64,000 nt of DNA from an uncultured Gammaproteobacteria bacterium (GCA_964399675.1 CAYNRK010000002.1:46982-110981), one strand, 5' to 3'. Positions 10,620-30,254 are shown, counted from the stretch's first letter. Translations and numbers: made by a program. Notes: a model not told the origin generated them from the sequence alone.

Positions 10620-10870
10620 GTCTTCGCTCTCCTCCCCTGCGTCGTTGCGAGCCCCCTTTCGTGAAACGGGGCGAAGCAATCTCCGTAAAGAATTCCCTCG
10701 TGTCCTGCACCTTGTGTCATTCCGAGCGAAGCGAAGCAATCTTCGTAAAGAATTATGGGGGGCAGTCACGTTGTATATAATTTCGGCAGTACTCGCTTTG
10801 CTCCGTGCTGGCGAAATTATATACAACGTACCTGTTGATGGTGGCCTGAGGGTTTGTCGGAGGATTGTGG
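10620..10870. repeat. about 250-bp composite intergenic repeat, copy A of two near-identical copies
   Basis: Nearly identical to 35765-36010. It contains GC-rich hairpins and a roughly 20-bp-stem hairpin (cacgttgtatataatttcggcag...ctggcgaaattatatacaacgt). Confidence 0.85.
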
Positions 10871-11112
10871 AAAAGCCATGCTTTTGGGGTCAAGTCTAAA
10901 ATCGAAACTTTTAAAATGACTACAGAGTTTAGATTTTAGACTTGACCCCCGTGTTTTAAATAACTTGTGTCGTAAAATGAGAAGACTAGGGGAGAGATGA
11001 GAGGGGGAAGGAGAGAGGGCTTGTGTTGATTTCAAGGGTACTAGGACACCTGCAAAATCTTACAGAGGCTTACATGGATTCTGGAACTAGTCAGATTTGG
11101 CTTGTAGAAAAT

Positions 11113-11230
11113 TTTGGATGACAGTCACGTTGTATAATTTCGGCAGACTCGCTTCGCTCGTGCTGGCGAAATTATACAACGTACCTGTTGTGGAGATACT
11201 GGGGTTCGTCGGAGGATTGTGGGAAAAAGA
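11113..11230. repeat. about 110-bp hairpin repeat (sub-element iii of the composite repeat)
   Basis: Matches the 3' part of the repeats at 10620-10870 and 35765-36010, and the reverse-strand copy at 47700-47790. Confidence 0.8.
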
Positions 11231-11282
11231 TGGTATGCGTCGTATAAGGTTTATTGTGCGACGCAAGAAATAAAGAAAAAAA

Positions 11283-16504: not shown

Positions 16505-16627
16505 CATTGACCCCGCCTCTTGCGAGAGGCGGGATTGACAATCATGAATTAGCACTCTATACTTTAGAGTGCTAATTTTAATTCGAGATCCCTCGGCTTC
16601 GGCCCGTCGGACGGGCCTTCGCTCGGG

Positions 16628-19303
16628 ATGACAAAAGCAGTTATGATTCCAAACAATTTCACACATAAATCTCAGGAAGCATTACAGCTTGCAAACAACA
16701 TTGCGCTTGATAACGGCCAACAAGCGCTTGAACCAATCCATTTACTTGCTTCCCTTTTACAACAAGACGAAGGAGTTGTAATCGCGATTATTGAAAAAAT
16801 TGCGTCAAAACATTCAGAACTTAGAAGCGAGATAGATCGAATTTTAACTGAGCTGCCAAACATGCAGGTTCCTGCTGGTGGAGGTGGTCTGGGTCAGGTT
16901 TATTTGAGTCAGCAAATGGCAACCGTACTTGCCAATGCTCACAAAAAATCAAAACAGTTTAAAGACGATTACATCTCCACAGAACACTTGTTGCTCGGAC
17001 TTTTATCAAACAAACCAATTGCAAAACTGTTAGGCTCTTTTGGAATTGAAGAAGAGGCTGTGCTAATAGCGCTCAAAGACATTCGTGGCAACCAACGCGT
17101 TGACTCGCCAGAACCTGAGGCACGTTATCAAGCACTTGAAAAATACGGCTTTGATTTAACTGAAATGGCAAACAAAGGCGAGCTGGATCCGATCATTGGG
17201 CGCGATTCTGAAATACGTCGAGTTATGCAAGTTTTGTCGCGTCGTACAAAAAACAATCCTGTGCTTATTGGTGAGGCTGGTGTTGGAAAAACAGCTATTG
17301 TAGAAGGTCTGGCTCAACGCATTGTTGATGGAGACGTTCCTGAAATGTTGCAAAACAAAACTTTGGTTGGACTGGATATTGGATCAATGGTTGCTGGAAC
17401 AAAATATCGCGGTGAGTTTGAAGATCGTCTCAAAGCTGTAATTAAAGAAATTGAAGAAAGTAATGGTGACATTATTTTGTTTATTGATGAGCTTCACACA
17501 CTGGTTGGAACAGGAACAACTGAAGGTGGTTCATTAGACGCAGCTAATTTACTAAAACCGGCTTTAGCGCGCGGAAAGCTTCGGGCAATTGGAGCAACAA
17601 CTCTCAAAGAATATCAAAAATATATTGAAAAAGATCCAGCGCTTGAACGACGCTTCCAGCCTGTAATGGTTGAGGAGCCAAGTGTTGACGATACAATTGC
17701 AATTTTGCGCGGCATTAAAGAAAAGTACGAAGTTCATCATGGAGTAAGAATCTCTGATCCTGGAATTGTTTCAGCAGCCCAACTTTCACATCGATATATT
17801 ACTGATCGAAATCTACCTGACAAGGCAGTTGATTTGATTGATGAGGCTGGATCAGCGCTTCGTATGCAAATTGACTCAATGCCGGAAGAGCTGGATTTAC
17901 TAAAGCGTGATGTTATGAGATTGGAAATTGAAGAAAAAGCGCTTGCAAAAGAAGAGGATAAAGATTCAAAAGAAAGACTCAAAGAAATTGAAAAGCAGGT
18001 TGCTGACCTTAAAGAGCAACGTGATGCAATCGAAGGTAAATGGAAAAATGAAAAAGAAAAAATCACAATAATTCGTGAAATCAAAAGTGAGGTTGAGAAA
18101 CTTCGCGCCAATGCTGAAATAGAAGAAAGACGCGGTGATCTTGAAAAGGTGGCAGAGATTCGTTATTCAACTATTCCAAAAAAAGAAGAGAAGTTAAAAT
18201 CCGCTGAAAAAGATTTGGTTGATTTACAAAAAGAACGAGGATTGCTTAAGGAAGTTGTTGGTGAAGAAGATGTTGCAACAGTTGTTTCTCGTTGGACTAA
18301 TATTCCGGTTTCAAAAATGCTTGAGTCTGAAATGGAAAAACTAGCTCGAATGGAAGAGGTGCTTAGTAAACGCGTTGTTGGTCAGGAAGAAGCAATTGTT
18401 GCTGTCTCAAATGCACTGCGACGTTCTCGAGCTGGAATTGGTGAGGAGAATCGTCCGATTGGATCTTTTATTTTCTTAGGACCAACCGGAGTTGGAAAAA
18501 CAGAACTTGCACGCGCACTTGCTGAGTTTATGTTTGATGAAGAGTCTGCGTTGGTTCGATTGGATATGTCTGAGTACATGGAAAAGCACACGGTTTCAAA
18601 AATCATTGGTTCCCCACCAGGATATGTTGGATATGATGAAGGTGGTCAGCTTACTGAAATTGTTCGAAGAAAACCTTACTCAGTACTTTTGTTTGACGAG
18701 ATTGAAAAGGCTCATCCGGATACATTTAACATTCTCCTTCAGATTCTTGATGATGGACATCTTACTGATGCTAAGGGTCGGAAAGTAAATTTCAAAAACA
18801 CGATTATTATCATGACCAGCAACATTGGATCTGATGTTATTTTGAGCTCTGGTCAGAAATTGTCATCAATGGGTTTTGCAGACAACGAAGGAGTGTCAGA
18901 GGATGATGAGATAAGAGAACAAATTATGGAGCGGATGAAGGACCACTTCCGTCCTGAGTTTTTAAATAGAGTTGACGATACAATCGTGTTCCACTCGCTT
19001 CAGAAATCAGATATAGAAAAGATTGTTGAGTTGCAACTTGCCATAATTTCTAATCGTTTAAAATCAATACGTGGAATTGTTTTGGATGTAAAAGACAAGG
19101 CAAAGAAACTTCTTGCTGAAAAAGGATATGATCCAGATTATGGAGCGCGTCCGTTAAAGCGAGTTATACAATCTGAAATTCTGGATCCGCTTTCAATGAA
19201 AATCGTCTCTGGTGAAGTGACTGAGGGGCAAAAGATTCCAATAACTGCTGATAATGAGTCGGTTCTCATTGGGAAACGTAAAAAGGAAAAAGTGGCAGCA
19301 TAA
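16628..19303 (+). CDS. clpB: ATP-dependent chaperone ClpB
   Basis: Two AAA+ modules ([18 protein letters not shown] and [15 protein letters not shown]) with a long coiled-coil middle domain between them. 891 aa. The start may instead be the in-frame ATG at 16643. Confidence 0.9.
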
Positions 19304-19362: not shown

Positions 19363-19543
19363 TTTTGTTGGAAAATTACTTATTATAGTTGACAAAAGCA
19401 CTAAAATGTGGTATAAATTGGCGTCTGTTTGCGAGTTCAGTTCTCAACTTTGGTGTTGAAAACGGGCTCTTAACAGGAGTTCGTTAACATCATCATCACA
19501 ACCCATCCGCACCAAAATGCGGATACATAGAAGAGGAGTCAAG

Positions 19544-20212
19544 ATGCACAGGACCTACGCGCTCCTGGCCATCAGCCTGATGGTCACCGGATGCTTCCGC
19601 CCGGATCTCCGGCCGGATGTCCGACCGACCCCGCCACCGACCGCACCGGTCGCGGACACCACCACGCCCGAGCCCACCGCATCCAACCCCGGCGAGAAGC
19701 CCTGCATCACCGGGCTCATCATCCTGGCCGATGACGGTCGCATGGAGCTCGAGGGCTGTCCCAAGGAGTGGGAGGTCTTCAGTCCGTTCAAGAAGGGCAA
19801 CACCGATACCGAAGACTCGGACGTCTCGGTAGGACGTTCGATCTACAAGATCCCCAACCCGAGCAAGTCCGAACTGTTCAACGGACCCGACATGCAGGGG
19901 ATCTACTACTTCCCTGGGGAGGATGCCAACGAGCGATACATCGAAGTCGATCAAGAAGACCAGCTCTGGTACCACGCAAAGGTGGACGGAGAATGGACAC
20001 AGAAGGAGCTCTTCAGCGCTCTGAAGGTGAATCGCTGGGTGAGTGAAAAGCGCAAGCTCACCCCGTTCCTGACACCCGGCATCATGGGACCGCCCGTGGT
20101 CCCGAGGGAGCAAGCCTGCGGCCAGATCTTGTGCGGAGACGCATGGCACATGCTACACCCGCTCAAGCAGACGCGGCTACTGCTCCACCTCCCGTCCAAG
20201 GGCAAGTCGTAG
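19544..20212 (+). CDS. lipoprotein, paralog family A member 1 (GC-rich island 1)
   Basis: Lipobox LMVTGC and a conserved C-ITGLIIL...EGCP motif. AAGAGGAG ribosome-binding site. The final motif is CGDAWHML. Confidence 0.6.
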   Translation: MHRTYALLAISLMVTGCFRPDLRPDVRPTPPPTAPVADTTTPEPTASNPGEKPCITGLIILADDGRMELEGCPKEWEVFSPFKKGNTDTEDSDVSVGRSIYKIPNPSKSELFNGPDMQGIYYFPGEDANERYIEVDQEDQLWYHAKVDGEWTQKELFSALKVNRWVSEKRKLTPFLTPGIMGPPVVPREQACGQILCGDAWHMLHPLKQTRLLLHLPSKGKS

Positions 20213-20239
20213 GGTTGTGATGATGCGCCGCTGACAAGG

Positions 20240-20392
20240 CGGCTCTCTCACTCAGGGCGTTGGTCTTCACCGACCTTCGCCCTACCCTTTCTTGTGTACA
20301 TCAGATTCTGGTGTTTACAAGAAAGCGTTCTCAACCGAGTTCGCTAAGTATCGTAACGTCTGCGTTGGAACGTGGGCATGCTCAGGAGTTAG
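20240..20392 (+). promoter_or_regulatory. conserved inter-cassette module, copy 1: terminator-like hairpin, palindromic operator overlapping a -35/-10 promoter, and a conserved leader
   Basis: Sequence reads ctcactcagggcg...cgccc, then ttgtgNacat...18 nt...t(a/t)tacaag, then aaagcg, then leader type A. Confidence 0.55.
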
Positions 20393-20998
20393 ATGCAGAG
20401 AATCTGTACGATCCTGGTCGCCATCTTGGTGGCCTCGGCGTGTGCAAGCACGCCAGTCAAGCCGTCGCAATCCACGTGCTACACAGGCATGTACATCGTA
20501 GGCGAAGACGGCCGTATCGAGATGCAGGGCTGTCCGCGTGTGAACAAGGTCGTCATGGCTTTCGGAGAAAGAAAGCCGGCCGGCATGACGCGTGATGCAA
20601 CATGGGTGCGTCGTCTGTCTCCGAACTCTACGCCGAGCCACATGCTCGAAGGTCCGGATTCGCAGGGACGATACTTCTACAAGATGACCGAGGGTGAGCT
20701 TCCCCCGAAGTACCTCTCGCTCATCAACGGAGTTCCGCACCTTCACATTCTACGCGAAGGAAGTTCCGCATACAGAGTGGAGAAGTTGCATCCAGCCTAC
20801 ACGGTTCGCGAATGGGTCACGAAGCCAGGAGCTTCCAAGCTACTCGCAGAAGGAACCAAGGAGCCCCTTACCATGCTGATCGACCTCCAAGGTCAGATCA
20901 TCAGCGGTCGCCCGTTCCATGTGCTCAGCAAGGCCAATCAGAAAGAGCGTCTGATCGATCTCTCGCAGATGCCGACTGACAAGCCTTCCGGGTCGTGA
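20393..20998 (+). CDS. lipoprotein, paralog family A member 2
   Basis: Lipobox LVASAC and the CYTGMYIV...QGCP motif. Confidence 0.6.
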   Translation: MQRICTILVAILVASACASTPVKPSQSTCYTGMYIVGEDGRIEMQGCPRVNKVVMAFGERKPAGMTRDATWVRRLSPNSTPSHMLEGPDSQGRYFYKMTEGELPPKYLSLINGVPHLHILREGSSAYRVEKLHPAYTVREWVTKPGASKLLAEGTKEPLTMLIDLQGQIISGRPFHVLSKANQKERLIDLSQMPTDKPSGS

Positions 20999-21012
20999 AG
21001 ACAGGCCGCTGA

Positions 21013-21153
21013 AAGGCGGCACTCTCACTCAGGGCGTGGTCCCAAAACCCACGCCCCGTTTCCTTGTGAACATGAGTAAATCTCGTGTATACAAGAAAGC
21101 GTTCTCAACCGAGTTCGCTAGAAATGACCACAGGGCTCAAGGAGGGTCAGAAC
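21013..21153 (+). promoter_or_regulatory. conserved inter-cassette module, copy 2
   Basis: Same module with leader type A. Confidence 0.55.
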
Positions 21154-22299
21154 ATGAGGATCATCGCCAACCTGTGCCTGCTGCTTGCCATCATGGCACC
21201 CAGCATCACCGCAGCGGAGACGCTGTCCGAAGCACTCGATCGCATGGAAGCCCAGGCCGAGATCGACCGAGAGCAGGTTCCGCTCTTTGCCATCACTGCC
21301 GAACGACTCAAGACGAACAGTGACGAGCTGTTCGGCATGCCAACGGACGTGATCAAAGCTGCCCGTCGTGTGGGTGGCTCGATGACGTTCGTCCGTGTGG
21401 GCGAATCATCGCTCAAGATCGAAGGCAAGAACGGCATTGTGACGTTTACCATGTATCTCTCGGTACAGAGCGCTCCGGACGCAAGAGGTAGTGTCCTTGC
21501 CTCAAACCGGGACAACCCGATCGAAAAGCTGATCGGCTGGGTGCACGGCATGCACACGAGCGGCATTGTCTTCGAGAAGAAGAAGGAAGGAACGGTCAAG
21601 GTCGTTCCCAACTTCATGACATGCAATGGCATCACCTTCGGCGGAAGGCTTCCCTACAACACAGAAGAGGCGTGCGAGCGTTTCGGGTTCGGAAGCCCCA
21701 GCAGGCTGCGGATCTGGAAGACGCCAGAAGATCGAAAAAGCGAGGACCAGTTCCTCATGTACCTGATGGCGCACTACGGAGAAAAAGGGGTGCTCACCCG
21801 GGCATCGCTCACCCAAGCGCTCGAAGCGCACAACGACCGCGTAAGCGCTGTCATCAAGGCCTCCGAGGAAAAGACCGGGTACGTCAGGTACAACCACTAC
21901 GCAGGCGACTACTCCACAGTGAAGGGGCACTTGCTCCGAGCCAATGTGCTCAGCAGGGCATACAGCATCCGGCCTGACGGACGTGTGGAGATCGCGGTTC
22001 ACGTGTACTCCGAACGCGTAGCAGGAGTCGAGGTGGAGCTGCAGTACGAAGACGGCAGCCCAGTTGCACCGACTACGATCGGCAACTTGGCCAAGGCAAC
22101 CATCGCACGTTCCAACCTGGTTCCCTCAGAGACAGGTCTGAGCGGCTTCGAAATCATCAAGGTTCAGCTTCCGTCAGGGCTCAAACCCGGAAAGCTCCGC
22201 ATCATGGCAAATGCCGTGGGCAACGATGGCAGAAGGCTCGTCCGAGACGAAGAGATCGGAACGTTCGAGTACGCAGTCAAGAGCCCCGACAAGAAGTAA
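21154..22299 (+). CDS. secreted hypothetical protein (signal peptide)
   Basis: N-terminus reads MRIIANLCLLLAIMAPSITAAE. It lies in GC-rich island 1. Confidence 0.5.
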   Translation: MRIIANLCLLLAIMAPSITAAETLSEALDRMEAQAEIDREQVPLFAITAERLKTNSDELFGMPTDVIKAARRVGGSMTFVRVGESSLKIEGKNGIVTFTMYLSVQSAPDARGSVLASNRDNPIEKLIGWVHGMHTSGIVFEKKKEGTVKVVPNFMTCNGITFGGRLPYNTEEACERFGFGSPSRLRIWKTPEDRKSEDQFLMYLMAHYGEKGVLTRASLTQALEAHNDRVSAVIKASEEKTGYVRYNHYAGDYSTVKGHLLRANVLSRAYSIRPDGRVEIAVHVYSERVAGVEVELQYEDGSPVAPTTIGNLAKATIARSNLVPSETGLSGFEIIKVQLPSGLKPGKLRIMANAVGNDGRRLVRDEEIGTFEYAVKSPDKK

Positions 22300-22319
22300 C
22301 CGACCACCGCATTCGTGCA

Positions 22320-22465
22320 ACACTCTCACTCAGGGCGTGGTCCCAAAACCCACGCCCCGTTTCCTTGTGAACATGAGCAAGTCTCGTGTACACAAGAAAG
22401 CGTGCAAACGCTTACCTAATCTCAACCAGCTCGTGATCCGTTGCGAGCAGTTCTAAGAGGACAAG
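22320..22465 (+). promoter_or_regulatory. conserved inter-cassette module, copy 3 (leader type B)
   Basis: Same hairpin and operator/promoter. The leader carries a gctcgtgatccgttgcgagc hairpin. Confidence 0.55.
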
Positions 22466-23119
22466 ATGACAAGAACACTCGCGTTCCTGTTGCTTGCAAC
22501 AATCGTTCTGCAAGGATGTGCCTGGCAGCTCTTTCCAAGGTCAGACTCGATCCCCAAGATCGTGACCGAAGAAGAAAACGATGAAGCACCCAAGCAGTGC
22601 TACACTGGCCTGATCATCATCACAAAAGACAAGTCTGCAGTCGAGGTTAGAGGCTGTCCTGACGAGTGGGCAATCTTCCGCCCAGTCAACAATCTTGGAC
22701 TGATCAATCATCCGGTGAACATCTCCTATTCCAAGGAAAGACACCCAACACCGAACATGATCATCGCAAGTGCGGATGATTACGGACGGTTTCATCTGCC
22801 AGCCCAAGAGGGGCAGCCCGCAAGATACATCAAGTTCGTGAACAGCTACCCAAGGCTTCACTGGACTGACCCAAAGTTGGGTGAGCAGCAAAGTGACCTC
22901 TACCCTGTCTACATTCTCAAGCGAGCCATTGCAAGACATCTGGATCCGGCGATCTTTGTCGATCCGGTCAATGGATGGCCACCTCTCGAAGAGCTGACCC
23001 ACGACTGTGGTGAATTCTTCTGCGGTCGTGCGTATCACCTGCTGCCTCCAGAAGAGCAAGCAAAGCGCTGGCTGGACATTCCGGACATGTTCAAGAGCGA
23101 CTATGGACGACTGTGGTAG
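22466..23119 (+). CDS. lipoprotein, paralog family A member 3
   Basis: Lipobox LQGCAW, the CYTGLIII...RGCP motif, and a C-terminal CGRAYHLL. Confidence 0.6.
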   Translation: MTRTLAFLLLATIVLQGCAWQLFPRSDSIPKIVTEEENDEAPKQCYTGLIIITKDKSAVEVRGCPDEWAIFRPVNNLGLINHPVNISYSKERHPTPNMIIASADDYGRFHLPAQEGQPARYIKFVNSYPRLHWTDPKLGEQQSDLYPVYILKRAIARHLDPAIFVDPVNGWPPLEELTHDCGEFFCGRAYHLLPPEEQAKRWLDIPDMFKSDYGRLW

Positions 23120-23139
23120 TATTCACAAATCGTTCGCCT

Positions 23140-23284
23140 CAGGGCGTTGGTTCTCACGAACCTTCGCCCTCCGTTTCCTTGTGAACATGCGCAAGTCTCG
23201 TGTTCAAAAGAAAGCGTCTTCATTACGAAGTTCGCTACATCTCGTAACGTCTGCGTTGGAACGTGGGCAAAAACCAGGAGCAGC
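23140..23284 (+). promoter_or_regulatory. conserved inter-cassette module, copy 4 (leader type A)
   Basis: Same module. Confidence 0.55.
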
Positions 23285-23890
23285 ATGAATAGGATCTGTA
23301 CGCTCTTGATCGTCTTGATGGCAATCGTGGCATGTGAAGCATGTGCCAGTACCAATGCCGAGCCAAAGCCGAGTGGCAGCGCAACCGCCACCGCCGAGAA
23401 GCCGTTCGATTACGCCACGCTGCCGGACCAAGCCGAGTGGACCTACTCGCTGGCAGCCGGCCTTCTCTGGACCGAACGGCAGAGAATCCAGTCTACGAAC
23501 ATGCCGGAGCCGGTCTGGAAAGCCTTTCCGCTTCCGGAGTTCGCAGGACAACAATCGCGCTTCGTACCCATGGTCAGGCCAAGCTACGGCGGCTCCTACG
23601 GCTATGGCATGGACTCGTCCAGGTGCGTGGTAGACGCCCTGATCAAGACCAACTCGATCAACGCTCGCGGTCTGGGTATCTCGGGCGGACAGTACGCCTA
23701 CTACCAGATCGTCAAGAAGATCGAGGATCCACTCCTCTACGATCCGCGCAACTTCGCCTTCCTGATCCGCTACCAGGAAGCCTACCTCAAGGTCACCTTC
23801 CCGAACCTTCACCAGATGAAGGTACAACGGTTGAAGGCTCCGACAGAGTTCAGCACAGGTCCATGCTCTCCCCCCATCAGCCAGTACTGA
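23285..23890 (+). CDS. lipoprotein (different family)
   Basis: Lipobox LMAIVAC. Confidence 0.5.
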   Translation: MNRICTLLIVLMAIVACEACASTNAEPKPSGSATATAEKPFDYATLPDQAEWTYSLAAGLLWTERQRIQSTNMPEPVWKAFPLPEFAGQQSRFVPMVRPSYGGSYGYGMDSSRCVVDALIKTNSINARGLGISGGQYAYYQIVKKIEDPLLYDPRNFAFLIRYQEAYLKVTFPNLHQMKVQRLKAPTEFSTGPCSPPISQY

Positions 23891-23914
23891 GCTGAACAAC
23901 GACACCCTCACTCA

Positions 23915-24050
23915 GGGCGCTCGTCCTCACAAACTAGCGCCCACGTTTCCTTGTGAACATGAGTAAGCTCGTGTTTAAAAGAAAGCGTGAAAACGCTTAC
24001 CACATCAACCAGCTCGTGATCCGTTGCGAGCAGTTCCAAAAAGGAAAACC
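23915..24050 (+). promoter_or_regulatory. conserved inter-cassette module, copy 5 (leader type B)
   Basis: Same module. Confidence 0.55.
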
Positions 24051-24416
24051 ATGAAGAACCAAACACTCTTCGTTGTCCTGCTGGGGATCCTGACACTTTC
24101 GCTTGCGATTTGCTGCGGAATCCTCGGTTACAAAAGCGTAACAATCGAGAGTCAGCAGGAAGAAATCACTGCTTGGCAAGAGGCAGTAGCACCGATCTTC
24201 ACGTACCGCAAGGGTGGAGACAAAAACACGGCTCGTTTCACACCAGCAATGGTCAAGAACGCGCTCAACCCTTGCCACTTCCGCCAGGATCTCGACGATG
24301 GAAGGCGTGTTCGTCTACGTGGATGCAACGAATTCCACAAACCAATCGGAAGAGTCCGGATCTCTGTGGAGTTCACCAATCCGGAGTTCAGAGAACTCAT
24401 CGAACACGGACCGTGA
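24051..24416 (+). CDS. small lipoprotein-like protein
   Basis: N-terminus LTLSLAICC and an LRGC motif. Confidence 0.45.
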   Translation: MKNQTLFVVLLGILTLSLAICCGILGYKSVTIESQQEEITAWQEAVAPIFTYRKGGDKNTARFTPAMVKNALNPCHFRQDLDDGRRVRLRGCNEFHKPIGRVRISVEFTNPEFRELIEHGP

Positions 24417-24427
24417 TCAACCAGGCC

Positions 24428-24462
24428 GAATTCACACTCTGGTGAATCTCGGCTTTTTCTTT
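24428..24462 (+). terminator. hairpin terminator at the 3' edge of island 1
   Basis: ccgaattcac...gtgaatctcgg followed by a T-run. Confidence 0.5.
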
Positions 24463-24595
24463 TTGGCAGAAAATTTGGAACCTAAAAAATAGGTACTCGC
24501 CTGCTTTTTACACAATCAAATTGATGTAAACTTCCCATATGGAAACTTTACATCAATCCTATAAAAGAAATCTTCAGAAGTTTAAGACAAAATTA

Positions 24596-27980: not shown

Positions 27981-28628
27981 TTAATCTTTGAATTTCTCAC
28001 GCATTTTATTAATTAACTCAGCGTGGAACTCCTTAAAGAAAACACTCCATTGCATGTATGGAGATTTGAACTTTTCAATTATACCAACTATTTCATAAGC
28101 CTCCATGTTGGCAAAGTGCTTGAGACGAACAATGGTGGCGTTTTTGTCAGTTAAGAGGTCGTAGATATCCGGACCAATCTTATCAATGCTTTTGGCGAAT
28201 TTCGCTTCATTGGTTTTCTGCGCCTTAAATTCCTGATATGCGGCATGGTGTTTTTCGTTTAATAACTTTAATGCTTCTTGTTCTTCAAGCTTCTCTTTTT
28301 CACTATTTTTTAAAAATGTAATTTCGTCGCCGATCGCAATTTCTCCAATATCATGAACAGCAAGCATCTCAAGTGCTTTACCAAGATTCACTGGTTCGGT
28401 TATGTATCCATGAAAAAAGACGGCAAGGATCGGTAGCGTGCCAACATGCTCGATAAGACTTTCCCTGATTATTATATTTTCGGGATCAAATTTAAAATTC
28501 GGATTGATCTGCTTTTGAATGTCATAACGAAAAGGCTGTGTGCTTGCCCGAAATTCGTTTGTATAATTTTTCAACAGTGACTCGATTTCTGAAAAAATTT
28601 CATCAAATGATTTTTGCATACTTATCAT
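27981..28628 (-). CDS. HD-domain phosphohydrolase (YfbR-like)
   Basis: H...HD...D motifs (HVGTLP..., AVHDIGEIAIGD). Confidence 0.65.
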   Translation of the reverse strand: MISMQKSFDEIFSEIESLLKNYTNEFRASTQPFRYDIQKQINPNFKFDPENIIIRESLIEHVGTLPILAVFFHGYITEPVNLGKALEMLAVHDIGEIAIGDEITFLKNSEKEKLEEQEALKLLNEKHHAAYQEFKAQKTNEAKFAKSIDKIGPDIYDLLTDKNATIVRLKHFANMEAYEIVGIIEKFKSPYMQWSVFFKEFHAELINKMREKFKD

Positions 28629-28630
28629 TC

Positions 28631-28664
28631 AGACTATTTTCCGCCGATCGGCGTAAAATAGTCT
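28631..28664. promoter_or_regulatory. 34-bp CGATCG-centred palindrome, putative operator, 3 nt upstream of the HD gene start
   Basis: agactattttccgccgatcggcgtaaaatagtct, the same palindrome family as at 40504 and 41061. Confidence 0.5.
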
Positions 28665-28815: not shown

Positions 28816-29160
28816 GTGAGCAAACATCGGTACACCGGTTTGGTGCTCAGCACAGAAGGTAACGATACTGAGGACACCTTCTTTGACATGATGATCGCTG
28901 GCGAGACTTTCCGTTTCGTACCAACGATCGACGAAGAGATGGTGGAGGACGAGCAGGTGCTGGCGCGCATCATCAGCGTGCAGGCTCACGCGTCGAAGAT
29001 AGCACTCCTCGTCACACTCAAGACCGTGGAGGTCGATGGGGAACGGATGCCTGCTGGTATATGGATTCTTGTCTTCGAGGGCGGGCTCGTTTGCGACAGG
29101 ATTCCGGAACGACCGACCGACCCAGACGACATTCGGTTGTGGATCGGGAAGATCGACTAG
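28816..29160 (+). CDS. hypothetical acidic protein (GC-rich island 2), GTG start
   Basis: GC-rich ORF. It is followed by a partial copy of the island-1 module hairpin at 29165-29215. Confidence 0.4.
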   Translation: MSKHRYTGLVLSTEGNDTEDTFFDMMIAGETFRFVPTIDEEMVEDEQVLARIISVQAHASKIALLVTLKTVEVDGERMPAGIWILVFEGGLVCDRIPERPTDPDDIRLWIGKID

Positions 29161-29164
29161 TAGC

Positions 29165-29215
29165 GCGCCGAACGACTCACTCAGGGTGTTGGTTCTCTTG
29201 AACCGCGCCCTGCTT
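29165..29215 (+). repeat. orphan partial copy of the island-1 inter-cassette module (hairpin part)
   Basis: ctcactcagggtgttggttctcttgaaccgcgccct, compared with cagggcgttggttctcacgaaccttcgccct at 23140. Confidence 0.6.
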
Positions 29216-29246
29216 TCTTTTACATACTATTACAACATTGAACATT

Positions 29247-30089
29247 TTATTCTAATTTCTTTTTTTCTTCCCCTCCGTCTAAATAATTCTCATCGCTCAC
29301 AACACTCTCCCCCGTAGCTTCTTCAAGCTGCTGCCTGGCACTCTTTGCAATACCGCCACCTTTTTTAGCAGATTGTGCATTTTCATTATAACCATGAGAC
29401 TCATCTTTCTTAGCAATCTTTGTAGTTGACAATTCCGCTAGTGCTGTAAAAATCAATTCAGCTTCTGTCATGGCATCGCGCAAATTTTCTTTATCAAGAT
29501 CTTTCAAATCCTTATGCTGGCCAGTAGTCAAACCGCTCCATTCTTTATGAATGATATTTGTTAACTTTGCATATTCCAAACCTTTTTGAACTCCACTCTC
29601 CTGCCAATAATCAGTCAGCTTATTTCTAATTTCCTGCCCACGCATTCTTTGCTCAATCCATTTTTCAGGCGCACCCATTTTCTTCCAATTCTCCCTAGCT
29701 CTATTTACTGCTATTTCAGGATTAACTATTTCTTGCAATCTCTCATGCCCAACCTTAGCCAACCAAAGTTTAAATGGCTCTGCCTTCTTTGATGGAATTG
29801 ACTGTACTAGACGAAAAATGTCTTCTACATTACCCACATCAAATTCCCTCATTTTTCCATCTTTTGCCTTCATTTTCAAAGTGTGACAATTTGTCACGGT
29901 TTGATTTCCTTCTTTAATTAATCTTTCTTTTAACTTCCGCCAGTAAGCTCCCGGCGAACTGCTTTGTGTTAATACAGCAACAATATCAACAATGGCAAAA
30001 TACCATTTTTCTTCTTTTTCTATCCATTTCCTACGTACAGGAAAATCTTCGAATAGAATGATCGTCTTATTCGAATTTTGATCTGACAT
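29247..30089 (-). CDS. Bro-N domain protein (phage antirepressor/DinD-like)
   Basis: N-terminal ...LFEDFPVRRKWIEKEEKWYFAIVDIVAVL... fits the Bro-N pattern. AT-rich composition. Confidence 0.55.
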   Translation of the reverse strand: MSDQNSNKTIILFEDFPVRRKWIEKEEKWYFAIVDIVAVLTQSSSPGAYWRKLKERLIKEGNQTVTNCHTLKMKAKDGKMREFDVGNVEDIFRLVQSIPSKKAEPFKLWLAKVGHERLQEIVNPEIAVNRARENWKKMGAPEKWIEQRMRGQEIRNKLTDYWQESGVQKGLEYAKLTNIIHKEWSGLTTGQHKDLKDLDKENLRDAMTEAELIFTALAELSTTKIAKKDESHGYNENAQSAKKGGGIAKSARQQLEEATGESVVSDENYLDGGEEKKKLE

Positions 30090-30254
30090 AAATCTTAATT
30101 TTTTCTAACAAAACCCAGCCTTAAGAGCTGGGATCGTGATAAAAGTTTATCGATTTTCTGGTGCATGGTCAAGCAAAAATTACTTTACAAAAAAACACCA
30201 ATAATTTGATGCTCTTTTGGAAACAAGCGAATGGGAAGGGAGAACTACCATTCG

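Follow-up and report, generated by a model that had tools for sequence, protein, structure and literature searches.

The 64,000-nucleotide (nt) stretch examined here (GCA_964399675.1, CAYNRK010000002.1:46982-110981), which we call the window and in which positions are counted from the first letter, has an average GC content of about 38-40%, and three GC-rich blocks are obvious in its profile, at 19.5-24.4 kb, 37.0-40.4 kb and 58.6-60.2 kb. The first block, island 1, is an array of six genes on the + strand, G1 to G6, whose five gaps carry a conserved non-coding module; the nature of this module and the origin of the array are the subject of this work. Island 1 is flanked by clpB (16628-19303) on one side and by an opposite-strand DUF5367/DUF2196/metK group on the other, with ribosomal protein genes, rpoA and alaS farther along the window; this DNA is a cellular chromosome. 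In a 1-kb profile, GC content rises from 0.40 to 0.54-0.58 across 20-24 kb, and it returns to the host level at a terminator at 24426-24465. The GC content at third codon positions (GC3) is 0.58-0.82 in the island genes versus 0.26-0.33 in clpB, metK, priA and other host genes. An earlier note, made from the sequence alone, had described six same-strand GC-rich genes unlike their flanks, and this description holds; its estimate of about 60% GC is slightly high as an island average, the per-gene values being 0.52-0.62.

G1 (19544-20212, +) encodes a lipoprotein of 222 amino acids (aa) and is the member of its family nearest to relatives found elsewhere. G2 (20393-20998, +; 201 aa) and G4 (22466-23119, +; 217 aa) are lipoprotein-like paralogs of G1, with 25-29% identity among the three. 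The paralogy and the motifs proposed for them in the earlier note are borne out in that C[IY]TG..I...GCP and a C-terminal G(D/R)..H.L are common to the three proteins, with the corrections that G2 reads SGRPFHVL rather than CG.. and that a strict lipobox is present in G1 only of the three. G3 (21154-22299, +), a secreted protein of 381 aa, G5 (23285-23890, +), a 201-aa lipoprotein of a separate family, and G6 (24051-24416, +), a small 121-aa protein that begins with a membrane anchor or signal, have no homology to G1. All six proteins begin with a hydrophobic N-terminus, in agreement with the earlier view of the products as secreted or lipoprotein-like. By pattern match, the strict lipobox [LVI][ASTVI][GAS]C was found only in G1 (VTGC) and G5 (IVAC) and relaxed lipoboxes in G2 (ASAC), G4 (LQGC) and G6 (AICC); the N-terminus of G3 is an ordinary signal-peptide-like sequence without a cysteine box.

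The Pfam/NCBIfam scan of the six island proteins gave no family match, and its sole item, a Cor lipoprotein signal-peptide match with E = 0.076, was disregarded. A profile hidden Markov model of G1/G2/G4 retrieved 15 sequences at E <= 0.001 from 1.84e9 representative proteins, including G1, G2 and G4 themselves, and a word-indexed homolog search with G4 returned only G4 itself. Among 5.8e9 protein clusters, G3 has a single homolog (48% identity); G5 has seven homologs (38-54% identity), and its AlphaFold2 model (pLDDT 69.9) found no match in the PDB by Foldseek (best E 0.16). Going by their sequences, the island products are presumably exported or surface proteins with accessory cell-surface functions.

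As the earlier note had claimed, a conserved module occurs in the gaps between the island genes, and our alignments show it to be homologous in all five. A core pattern of the module has 5 matches versus 0 expected, and CTCACTCAGGGCG has 5 matches versus 0.68 expected. To describe these elements we used R1, a covariance model of the 3′ module, and R2, a covariance model of the leader, built without window sequence. M1 (20213-20337, +; R1 102 bits), the 3′ module of G1 and the most complete copy, contains the right half of an inverted repeat (IR-R) followed by three hairpins, hp0, hp1 and hp2; M2 (20991-21111, +; 86 bits) contains hp0, hp1 and hp2, while M3 (22292-22412, +; 75.6 bits), M4 (23115-23226, +; 79.8 bits) and M5 (23880-23997, +; 69.1 bits) contain hp1 and hp2. 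In each copy the right arm of hp2 passes directly into a short leader remnant and then a Shine-Dalgarno sequence. The two alternative leader types distinguished in the earlier note are real: type A follows M1, M2 and M4, and type B follows M3, where it extends up to 22465, and M5. The type A remnant with the Shine-Dalgarno of G2 (20338-20392, +) aligns with the distal part of the canonical leader described below (..GAGTTCGCTA vs ..GTGTTCGTTGACA) and is undetected by R2. In M4, the type A leader that it has in common with M1 extends into the signal-peptide codons, so that 20251-20420 and 23138-23312 are 78% identical.

M1-M5 align lengthwise with eleven external 3′ modules, and the consensus fold consists of hp1, with 8-11 pairs, and hp2, with 16-18 pairs. 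In the alignment, 93.9% of the hp1 and hp2 cells are paired versus 46-59% with slid partners, the cells in which both partners have changed number 25 versus 1-8 in slid controls, and the covariation score was reached in 0 of 500 shuffles. The departures from Watson-Crick pairing are strongly biased, with 43 G.T versus 5 A.C in hp1 and hp2, and 53 versus 2 in the leader hairpin. Because of this bias, hp2 is read as a fold of the sense strand and not as a duplex protein-binding palindrome. Covariation and bias together show hp1 and hp2 to be selected as folds of the sense strand, most simply as RNA. Following hp2, M1-M5 continue with TTCTCAACC, TGCAAACG or TCTTCATT, and none has a U-run.

The region upstream of G1 holds two features beyond those of the earlier note, namely a near-consensus promoter and a canonical structured leader. 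Read directly from the sequence, the array promoter (19389-19417, +) has a -35 TTGACA at 19389-19394, a 17-nt spacer with TGg at 19409-19411 and a -10 TATAAA at 19412-19417, and a promoter of equal position and form is present in 13 related units. Our promoter scan demands T at position 6 of the -10 element, which is the reason this promoter was passed over. The leader (19422-19505, +; R2 53.2 bits, E = 6e-10), the sole R2 match in the window, forms a covarying hairpin of about 16 bp whose 3′ arm continues into the 5′ arm of what we call the closing helix.

The closing helix is a further feature beyond the earlier note. The G1 coding region lies between the halves of a 14-bp inverted repeat: the inner arm of the left half, IR-L (CATCATCACAACCC; 19491-19504, +), is the perfect complement of IR-R (GGGTTGTGATGATG; 20212-20225, +), which overlaps the G1 stop codon. 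The helix covaries, with C.G replaced by T.A in L010 and L018 and A.T by C.G in canonical units (L numbers denote metagenome loci), and it is present in both the minimum free energy and the centroid folds of whole messenger RNAs (mRNAs; z = -6.0 and -5.8). For the predicted helix, duplex energies in 12 loci range from -24 to -41 kcal/mol versus shuffled means of -13 to -21, and the duplex z-score is -2.6 for G1 and -0.4 or weaker for G2-G6. By the consensus test, G1 is also the only one of the six genes with a promoter of its own, and G6 is the only one with its own intrinsic terminator (stem and U-run). This is the array-end terminator (24426-24465, +), a hairpin of host type followed by CTTTTTCTTTTT, read directly from the sequence. 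Thus, among the island genes, only G1 is shown by these comparisons to keep the predicted promoter, leader and closing helix of the family. An inversion of G1 between its flanking inverted repeats was considered and rejected, its orientation being identical in all four long assemblies of the island.

The frame around G1 is that of a stereotyped unit present in about 20 other metagenome loci, whose host flanks are unrelated to one another and mostly AT-rich. A 22-nt leader pattern gave 33 matches in metagenome contigs, of which about 15 are genuine. The canonical unit begins with a promoter, C-TTGACA-N17-TGnTAnAAT, and a structured leader of about 85 nt that starts with UCCUGU and forms the hairpin of about 16 bp; it is followed in turn by the segment GTTCGTTGACAGCATCATCACACCCC, a short hairpin, GGAGG and ATG. 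After the stop codon come GGGGTGTGATGATGC, hp0 and GACAACGAA, which together are complementary to the 5′ segment over about 26 nt, so that pairing closes a long-range helix whose loop is formed by the coding region and its own Shine-Dalgarno. The 3′ end consists of hp1 and then hp2 (CCCCTTCTTTTGCACATCA...TGATGTTCAGAAGAAGGGG), and in 7 of 12 full units (L101, L104, L105, L114, L115, L010 and L134) a U-run (TTTTT) stands directly after hp2, which makes hp2 an intrinsic terminator in those units. The cargo consists of unrelated GC-rich open reading frames (ORFs) of 72-208 aa, among them one macro-domain protein and several lipoproteins or membrane proteins. Between units, the frame is 65-89% identical on the 5′ side and 66-94% on the 3′ side, and the cargo is at the random baseline except for true homologs. 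Based on these alignments, M1-M5 are shown to be homologs of the predicted 3′ untranslated region (UTR)/terminator module of a single-gene unit.

Cargo homologs of the island were found in this frame as well. P0004, the nearest relative of G1, is a solitary gene of 55% GC in a contig of 33% GC, between Trp-repressor-like and transfer RNA (tRNA) genes, and its non-coding flanks are homologous to those of G1, including the TTGACA promoter, the leader, the bracketing inverted repeat and both 3′ hairpins; no cassette gene lies downstream of this unit. L012 has the same layout as P0004. The sole G3 homolog, in L018, is in the canonical frame, and a G5 homolog in L134 is in the canonical frame inside an integron. 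The G1, G3 and G5 families are thus each found elsewhere as solitary canonical units and, in the island, one non-coding frame flanks genes that are not homologous, as expected of the cassette-like array that the earlier note had proposed. L013 and L015 have a solitary GC-rich family gene behind a TTGACA promoter, where an ordinary terminator replaces the hairpin module. The contrast in composition with the surroundings was also seen in L010, L012, L013, L015 and L134. At 1446-2330 of L013, adjacent GC-rich genes for a G1-family lipoprotein and an Aminotran_5 enzyme each stand behind a copy of one AT-rich promoter repeat, 'acttgacaaatatcaaaaaaatgtta', which is a different way to equip GC-rich inserts with a host-type promoter. 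A terminal overlap of the L018 contig was rejected as evidence of a circle; L007 shows such an artefact where the M3/M5 repeat is known to lie, so that the overlap in L018 reflects a flanking direct repeat.

The earlier note had assigned a terminator, an operator and a promoter to the module of each gene. In that account the six genes would be independent transcription units in which hp1 terminates the upstream gene and a 14-bp palindrome is the operator of a dimeric regulator over a TTGTGA/TATACA promoter, the whole being a co-regulated surface-lipoprotein regulon. The two hexamers are indeed conserved in the five copies, 62-77 nt upstream of the start codons, the paired changes keep the palindromic symmetry as a symmetric operator would, and imperfect -10 boxes occur in some genuine promoters of the family. 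However, the 14-bp palindrome is the inner part of the 18-pair hp2, a stem that reaches past any hexamer logic and in which compensatory changes occur, and TTGTGA and TATACA are its two arms; a duplex operator is not expected to show the strand bias of G.T over A.C. The -10 element varies between copies (TATACA, TACACA, TTCAAA, TTTAAA, TTTACA), the consensus scan found no + strand sigma-70-like site inside M1-M5, and the modules lack the genuine promoter of the family, which is a separate element. Moreover, the homologous hairpin stands at the 3′ end of solitary units, with a U-run in the fraction given above and with no family sequence downstream. We regard independent transcription units as unlikely, and the per-gene module of the earlier note is replaced by a 3′ hairpin and a single family promoter upstream of G1. 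The misreading is instructive, as it shows terminator hairpin arms mimicking -35 and -10 boxes.

An ordinary horizontal island, i.e., one block acquired from a GC-rich donor and then extended by local tandem duplication, with the repeats as copied donor UTRs, would account for the paralogy of G1, G2 and G4, for the sequence common to M1 and M4 into the signal peptide and for the strong compositional contrast. It is difficult to reconcile with the presence of the same modules beside G3, G5 and G6, with the frame's unrelated cargo and unrelated AT-rich flanks in about 20 loci, or with the lack of any GC-rich genome carrying the cargo families among the 1.84e9 representative proteins; we consider it improbable. 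The family members whose context was looked up are all in AT-rich or mosaic surroundings. A viral reservoir is likewise unsupported, a search of IMG/VR having given only a chance AT-rich match.

The sharp shift in GC content at both island edges could in principle come from an assembly chimera of GC-rich and AT-rich organisms. The island with both AT-rich flanks is, however, 99.9-100% identical, junctions included, in four separate ENA/JGI assemblies (L001-L004) from different samples and pipelines. Since four independent assemblies carry it together with its flanks, the island is no assembly join, and the contiguity with the AT-rich flanks, raised as a question in the earlier note, is established. 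In addition, a promoter and leader that look functional mark the 5′ junction, a terminator marks the 3′ junction, and the architecture recurs in other genomes, which leaves a chimera with a negligible probability. Five shorter contigs (L005-L009) cover the island only in part, and the sampled populations are almost invariant across it. An exception is L004, in which a patch of about 50 nt within M3 has the M5 sequence; this indicates a probable gene conversion and suggests that recombination between modules is ongoing.

The host is probably a member of the Patescibacteria, since the nearest relatives of its ClpB, at 60-64% identity, belong mostly to this group among species-representative genomes. 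When ClpB was used to look for closer relatives or for an empty site, identity was 64% at best, and no synteny comparison is therefore possible.

The association of the unit with integrons was examined in loci with integron-like arrays (L105 1-2812, L124, L134 2830-4463 and L115), all in AT-rich genomes. In L105/L124, the unit lies between attC3 and attC4, where the attC-like sites have the form xxTAAC-G-N3-arm ... arm-T-GTTAxxx; the arrays of L105 and L124 contain at least 4 such sites (a structure and core scan recovers 4-5 in each). In L101, L104, L114 and L134, attC-like sites adjoin the unit, and in L115 and L134 an intI-like gene (Phage_int_SAM_4 and Phage_integrase) is close to it. The intI-like gene of L134 adjoins rpoB and rpoC, and that of L115 contains an in-frame stop. 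L105-type loci have, in addition, an inverted repeat of about 75 nt on either side of the unit, directly adjoining the attC cores. By this context, relatives of the unit are bona fide integron cassettes elsewhere (L105/L124, L101, L104, L114 and L134). Ordinary cassette ORFs of L105 and L134 are on the strand opposite to the unit; the unit is thus a cassette in reverse orientation, and this would explain why it has its own promoter and terminator. Our literature search found no description of this kind of integron cassette in Patescibacteria, and nothing relevant on integrons in Patescibacteria or on GC-rich islands in this group under its older name, Candidate Phyla Radiation.

These relatives give some weight to a reading in which a recombinase acts on a single-stranded DNA fold of hp2, perhaps together with hp1, as on attC or dif-like sites, so that the array would have arisen by successive site-specific insertions. 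One structured element separates non-homologous genes, with a partial copy at the 5′ edge of the array, relatives occur in integron arrays beside intI-like genes, folded single-stranded DNA tolerates G.T pairs, and modules M3 and M5 have exchanged sequence in one population. Homologous gene conversion explains this last patch equally well, however, and the integron-borne relatives have separate attC sites with AAC...GTT cores outside the unit, hp1 and hp2 being inside the cassette. Neither hp2, which lacks RYYYAAC/GTTRRRY cores, nor M1-M5 as a whole, which lack AAC/GTT cores, has the expected sequence. The earlier note had left room for the modules being attC sites of an integron with an intI nearby; in the window, the structure and core scan found no attC-like site, family-specific core patterns yielded no paired site, and tblastn with the L115 integrase (E <= 1e-3) found no tyrosine recombinase, in keeping with the lack of an integrase reported in that note. 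The Pfam annotation contains no Phage_integrase in 12.5-33 kb and 35-57 kb; in 1-12.5 kb, 33-35 kb and 57-64 kb, the integrase search was by tblastn only. We consider a recombination site to be quite unlikely.

The interpretation that we favour, and hold to be fairly probable, is that six self-contained GC-rich single-gene expression units have been fused head to tail into island 1, in which the repeat between genes is the 3′ hairpin/terminator module of the gene upstream. The single-gene cassette is apparently undescribed. Units of this kind occur scattered in AT-rich genomes, and the island is a derived, fused array of such promoter-bearing gene cassettes or morons. The frame is complete around G1, and G2-G6 keep only hp1 and hp2 (hp0 also in M1 and M2) and short leader remnants; in these five, the promoter, the closing helix, the U-run and the greater part of the leader would have been lost. 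The array may have formed by recombination between the similar hp2 right-arm/leader sequences of adjacent units. Since G2-G6 keep hp1 and hp2 without a U-run and G1 alone has a promoter, one polycistronic transcript would be likeliest, the six genes being expressed mainly as one mRNA that runs from the G1 promoter (19389-19417) to the array-end terminator (24426-24465). Between the cistrons, hp1 and hp2 might then act as RNA elements, by protecting 3′ ends, as processing sites or as leaky terminators that grade expression.

Several points weigh against this interpretation. Co-transcription, a function at the RNA level and read-through of hp2 are all inferred, and the G.T-rich hairpins fold equally well in top-strand single-stranded DNA. 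In hp2 there are TTGTGA-N18-TATACA-like hexamers, each with 3-4 of 6 positions, and T at position 6 is missing from several genuine -10 elements of the family as well; hp2 may therefore contain a weak promoter of its own. The interpretation assigns no role to the closing helix and accounts neither for the GC-richness of the cargo nor for the route of the units to this site, and the assignment of the host to the Patescibacteria is based solely on the ClpB best hits at 60-64% identity.

A wider proposal, which we put forward tentatively and think may well be wrong, is that the frame is a new portable expression scaffold that holds orphan GC-rich ORFs with their own ribosome-binding site at the apex of a helix; it would either move as an integron cassette in reverse orientation or settle by itself. 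If the ORFs were actively captured, and not swapped by homologous recombination, this would bear on how gene cassettes are created and would also explain the GC-rich mosaic of these genomes. Much of the GC-rich insert DNA is in one stereotyped non-coding frame that is in no RNA or protein family library. The two covariance models and the 22-nt pattern provide a sequence handle to find accessory secreted and surface proteins of ultra-small bacteria. The frame also permits a test of 5′/3′ UTR pairing as a control of mRNA fate, and it raises questions about how cassettes acquire cargo and how they fuse into operons.

Among known systems, integron cassettes resemble the units in that they are single-gene units arrayed along one strand, each gene being followed by a conserved structured element, and in that units of the relatives lie between attC-like sites (L101, L104, L105/L124, L114 and L134). 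They differ in that the window has neither intI nor attC and in that hp1 and hp2 are inside the cassette and not at its boundary. The closest integron type is the promoter-bearing reverse-orientation cassette of sedentary chromosomal integrons; to our knowledge, the frame of leader, closing helix and hp0-hp2 is not a described feature of integron cassettes. Phage morons, a concept of Juhala, Hendrix and colleagues, are reportedly autonomous promoter-gene-terminator units of deviant base composition, and the canonical unit is similar in its promoter, one gene and terminator, in its deviant composition and in its cargo, often lipoproteins or membrane proteins. In contrast to morons, the island is in a cellular chromosome between clpB and metK and not in a prophage, the one phage-type gene in the vicinity being Bro-N at 29247-30089, and its first unit alone keeps a promoter. 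We know of no single conserved UTR scaffold shared by morons across unrelated genes.

The earlier note had compared the array with variable surface-lipoprotein families, and the Mycoplasma vsp/vlp and Borrelia erp/mlp loci do likewise have tandem lipoprotein genes with conserved non-coding sequence between them; on the island side, a leader and signal-peptide codons are common to G2 and G5. This resemblance is superficial: what is conserved in the island is mainly the 3′ module belonging to the preceding gene, the frame also flanks non-lipoprotein cargo such as the macro-domain protein, and no invertase, invertible promoter or homopolymer/short-repeat phase switch was seen in the island. The mRNA stabilisers of the repetitive extragenic palindromic (REP)/bacterial interspersed mosaic element (BIME) type are also sense-strand hairpins between cistrons, but have no sequence relation to hp1 and hp2. 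The RNase III processing stems that flank ribosomal RNAs and phage T7 early mRNAs resemble the canonical unit in that a long-range helix encloses a functional RNA, and they too are unrelated to it in sequence.

R1 also picks up copies outside its training set, in L123 (57 bits), in L134 (74 bits) and in the window after two more GC-rich genes, which the earlier note did not list. Both lie in the two small GC-rich stretches at 28.8-31.3 kb, recognised by reading the sequence and its ORFs. S1 (28816-29250, +) is a degenerate solitary unit with a GC-rich 114-aa ORF followed by a 3′ module of hp1 and the left arm of hp2 (29146-29250, +; E = 1e-5). S2 (30171-30800, -) is a solitary unit in which a diverged 3′ module (30171-30300, -; E = 3e-4) comes after a GC-rich membrane-protein ORF (30255-30800). 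Directly between S1 and S2 lies the Bro-N gene (29247-30089, -), which has the host composition; the Bro-N domain is usually phage-associated. The hp2 core pattern had no match in genome, viral or metagenome contig collections, for which the window modules are too diverged as bait. The window gave no hit in Rfam 15 at the gathering score, and in 13 related loci the leader and 3′ module were unmatched even at E <= 1, the only matches being tRNAs.

The remaining GC-rich inserts are of other kinds; together with island 1, S1 and S2 they make up about 18% of the 64-kb window. Island 2 (37060-40390) contains a 571-aa ORF (37590-39305, +) with sub-threshold NCBIfam matches to 'TIGR-Tas system RNA-guided endonuclease' (E = 3.9e-17, 62.9 bits vs a cut-off of 100) and 'IS110 family RNA-guided transposase' (E = 1.2e-6), and with no Pfam or PDB sequence match. 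Its flanks, about 0.5 kb upstream and 1.1 kb downstream, contain about nine GGGCGAGCG-N40-GCTCGCCCCTTTC hairpins and several other repeat families, and island 2 may encode an RNA-guided recombinase or nuclease with a guide-RNA array. The idea that island 2 guides insertion into island 1 is unsupported, as the 10-mers shared by the modules and the island 2 repeats are at chance level. A major facilitator superfamily (MFS) transporter insert (58615-60162, +; GC3 0.80) and S3, a small two-ORF insert (30808-31279, +), each start directly after a TTGACA-type promoter; the canonical leader and the 3′ module are absent from both.

Public gene calls on these GC-rich inserts (L001, L003 and L019) frequently take an antisense shadow ORF, for example a 217-aa call on the - strand over G1, a 233-aa call on the - strand over G5, and 272-aa and 251-aa calls on the - strand over the island 2 ORF. 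These antisense calls are gene-caller artefacts of GC-rich DNA, and the true proteins are therefore partly missing from protein databases.

Other repeats were observed in the host DNA. By blastn self-comparison, about 58 bp just upstream of clpB (16581-16637) are repeated in inverted orientation 14 kb away (2272-2329) with 98% identity. A 246-nt direct repeat (10629-10874 and 35767-36012; 93% identity) has its copies 25 kb apart, with a third, partial copy at 11104-11232. Finally, AT-rich CGATCG-centred palindromes lie between host genes, with the forms ..ACTATTTTCCGxCGATCGxCGxAAAATAGT.. and ..AAAATACTTCTCGATCGAGAAGTATTTT.., at 28621-28663, 40494-40536 and 41051-41093, and at 60298-60344 and 60856-60902; they may be host terminators or a small repeat family.

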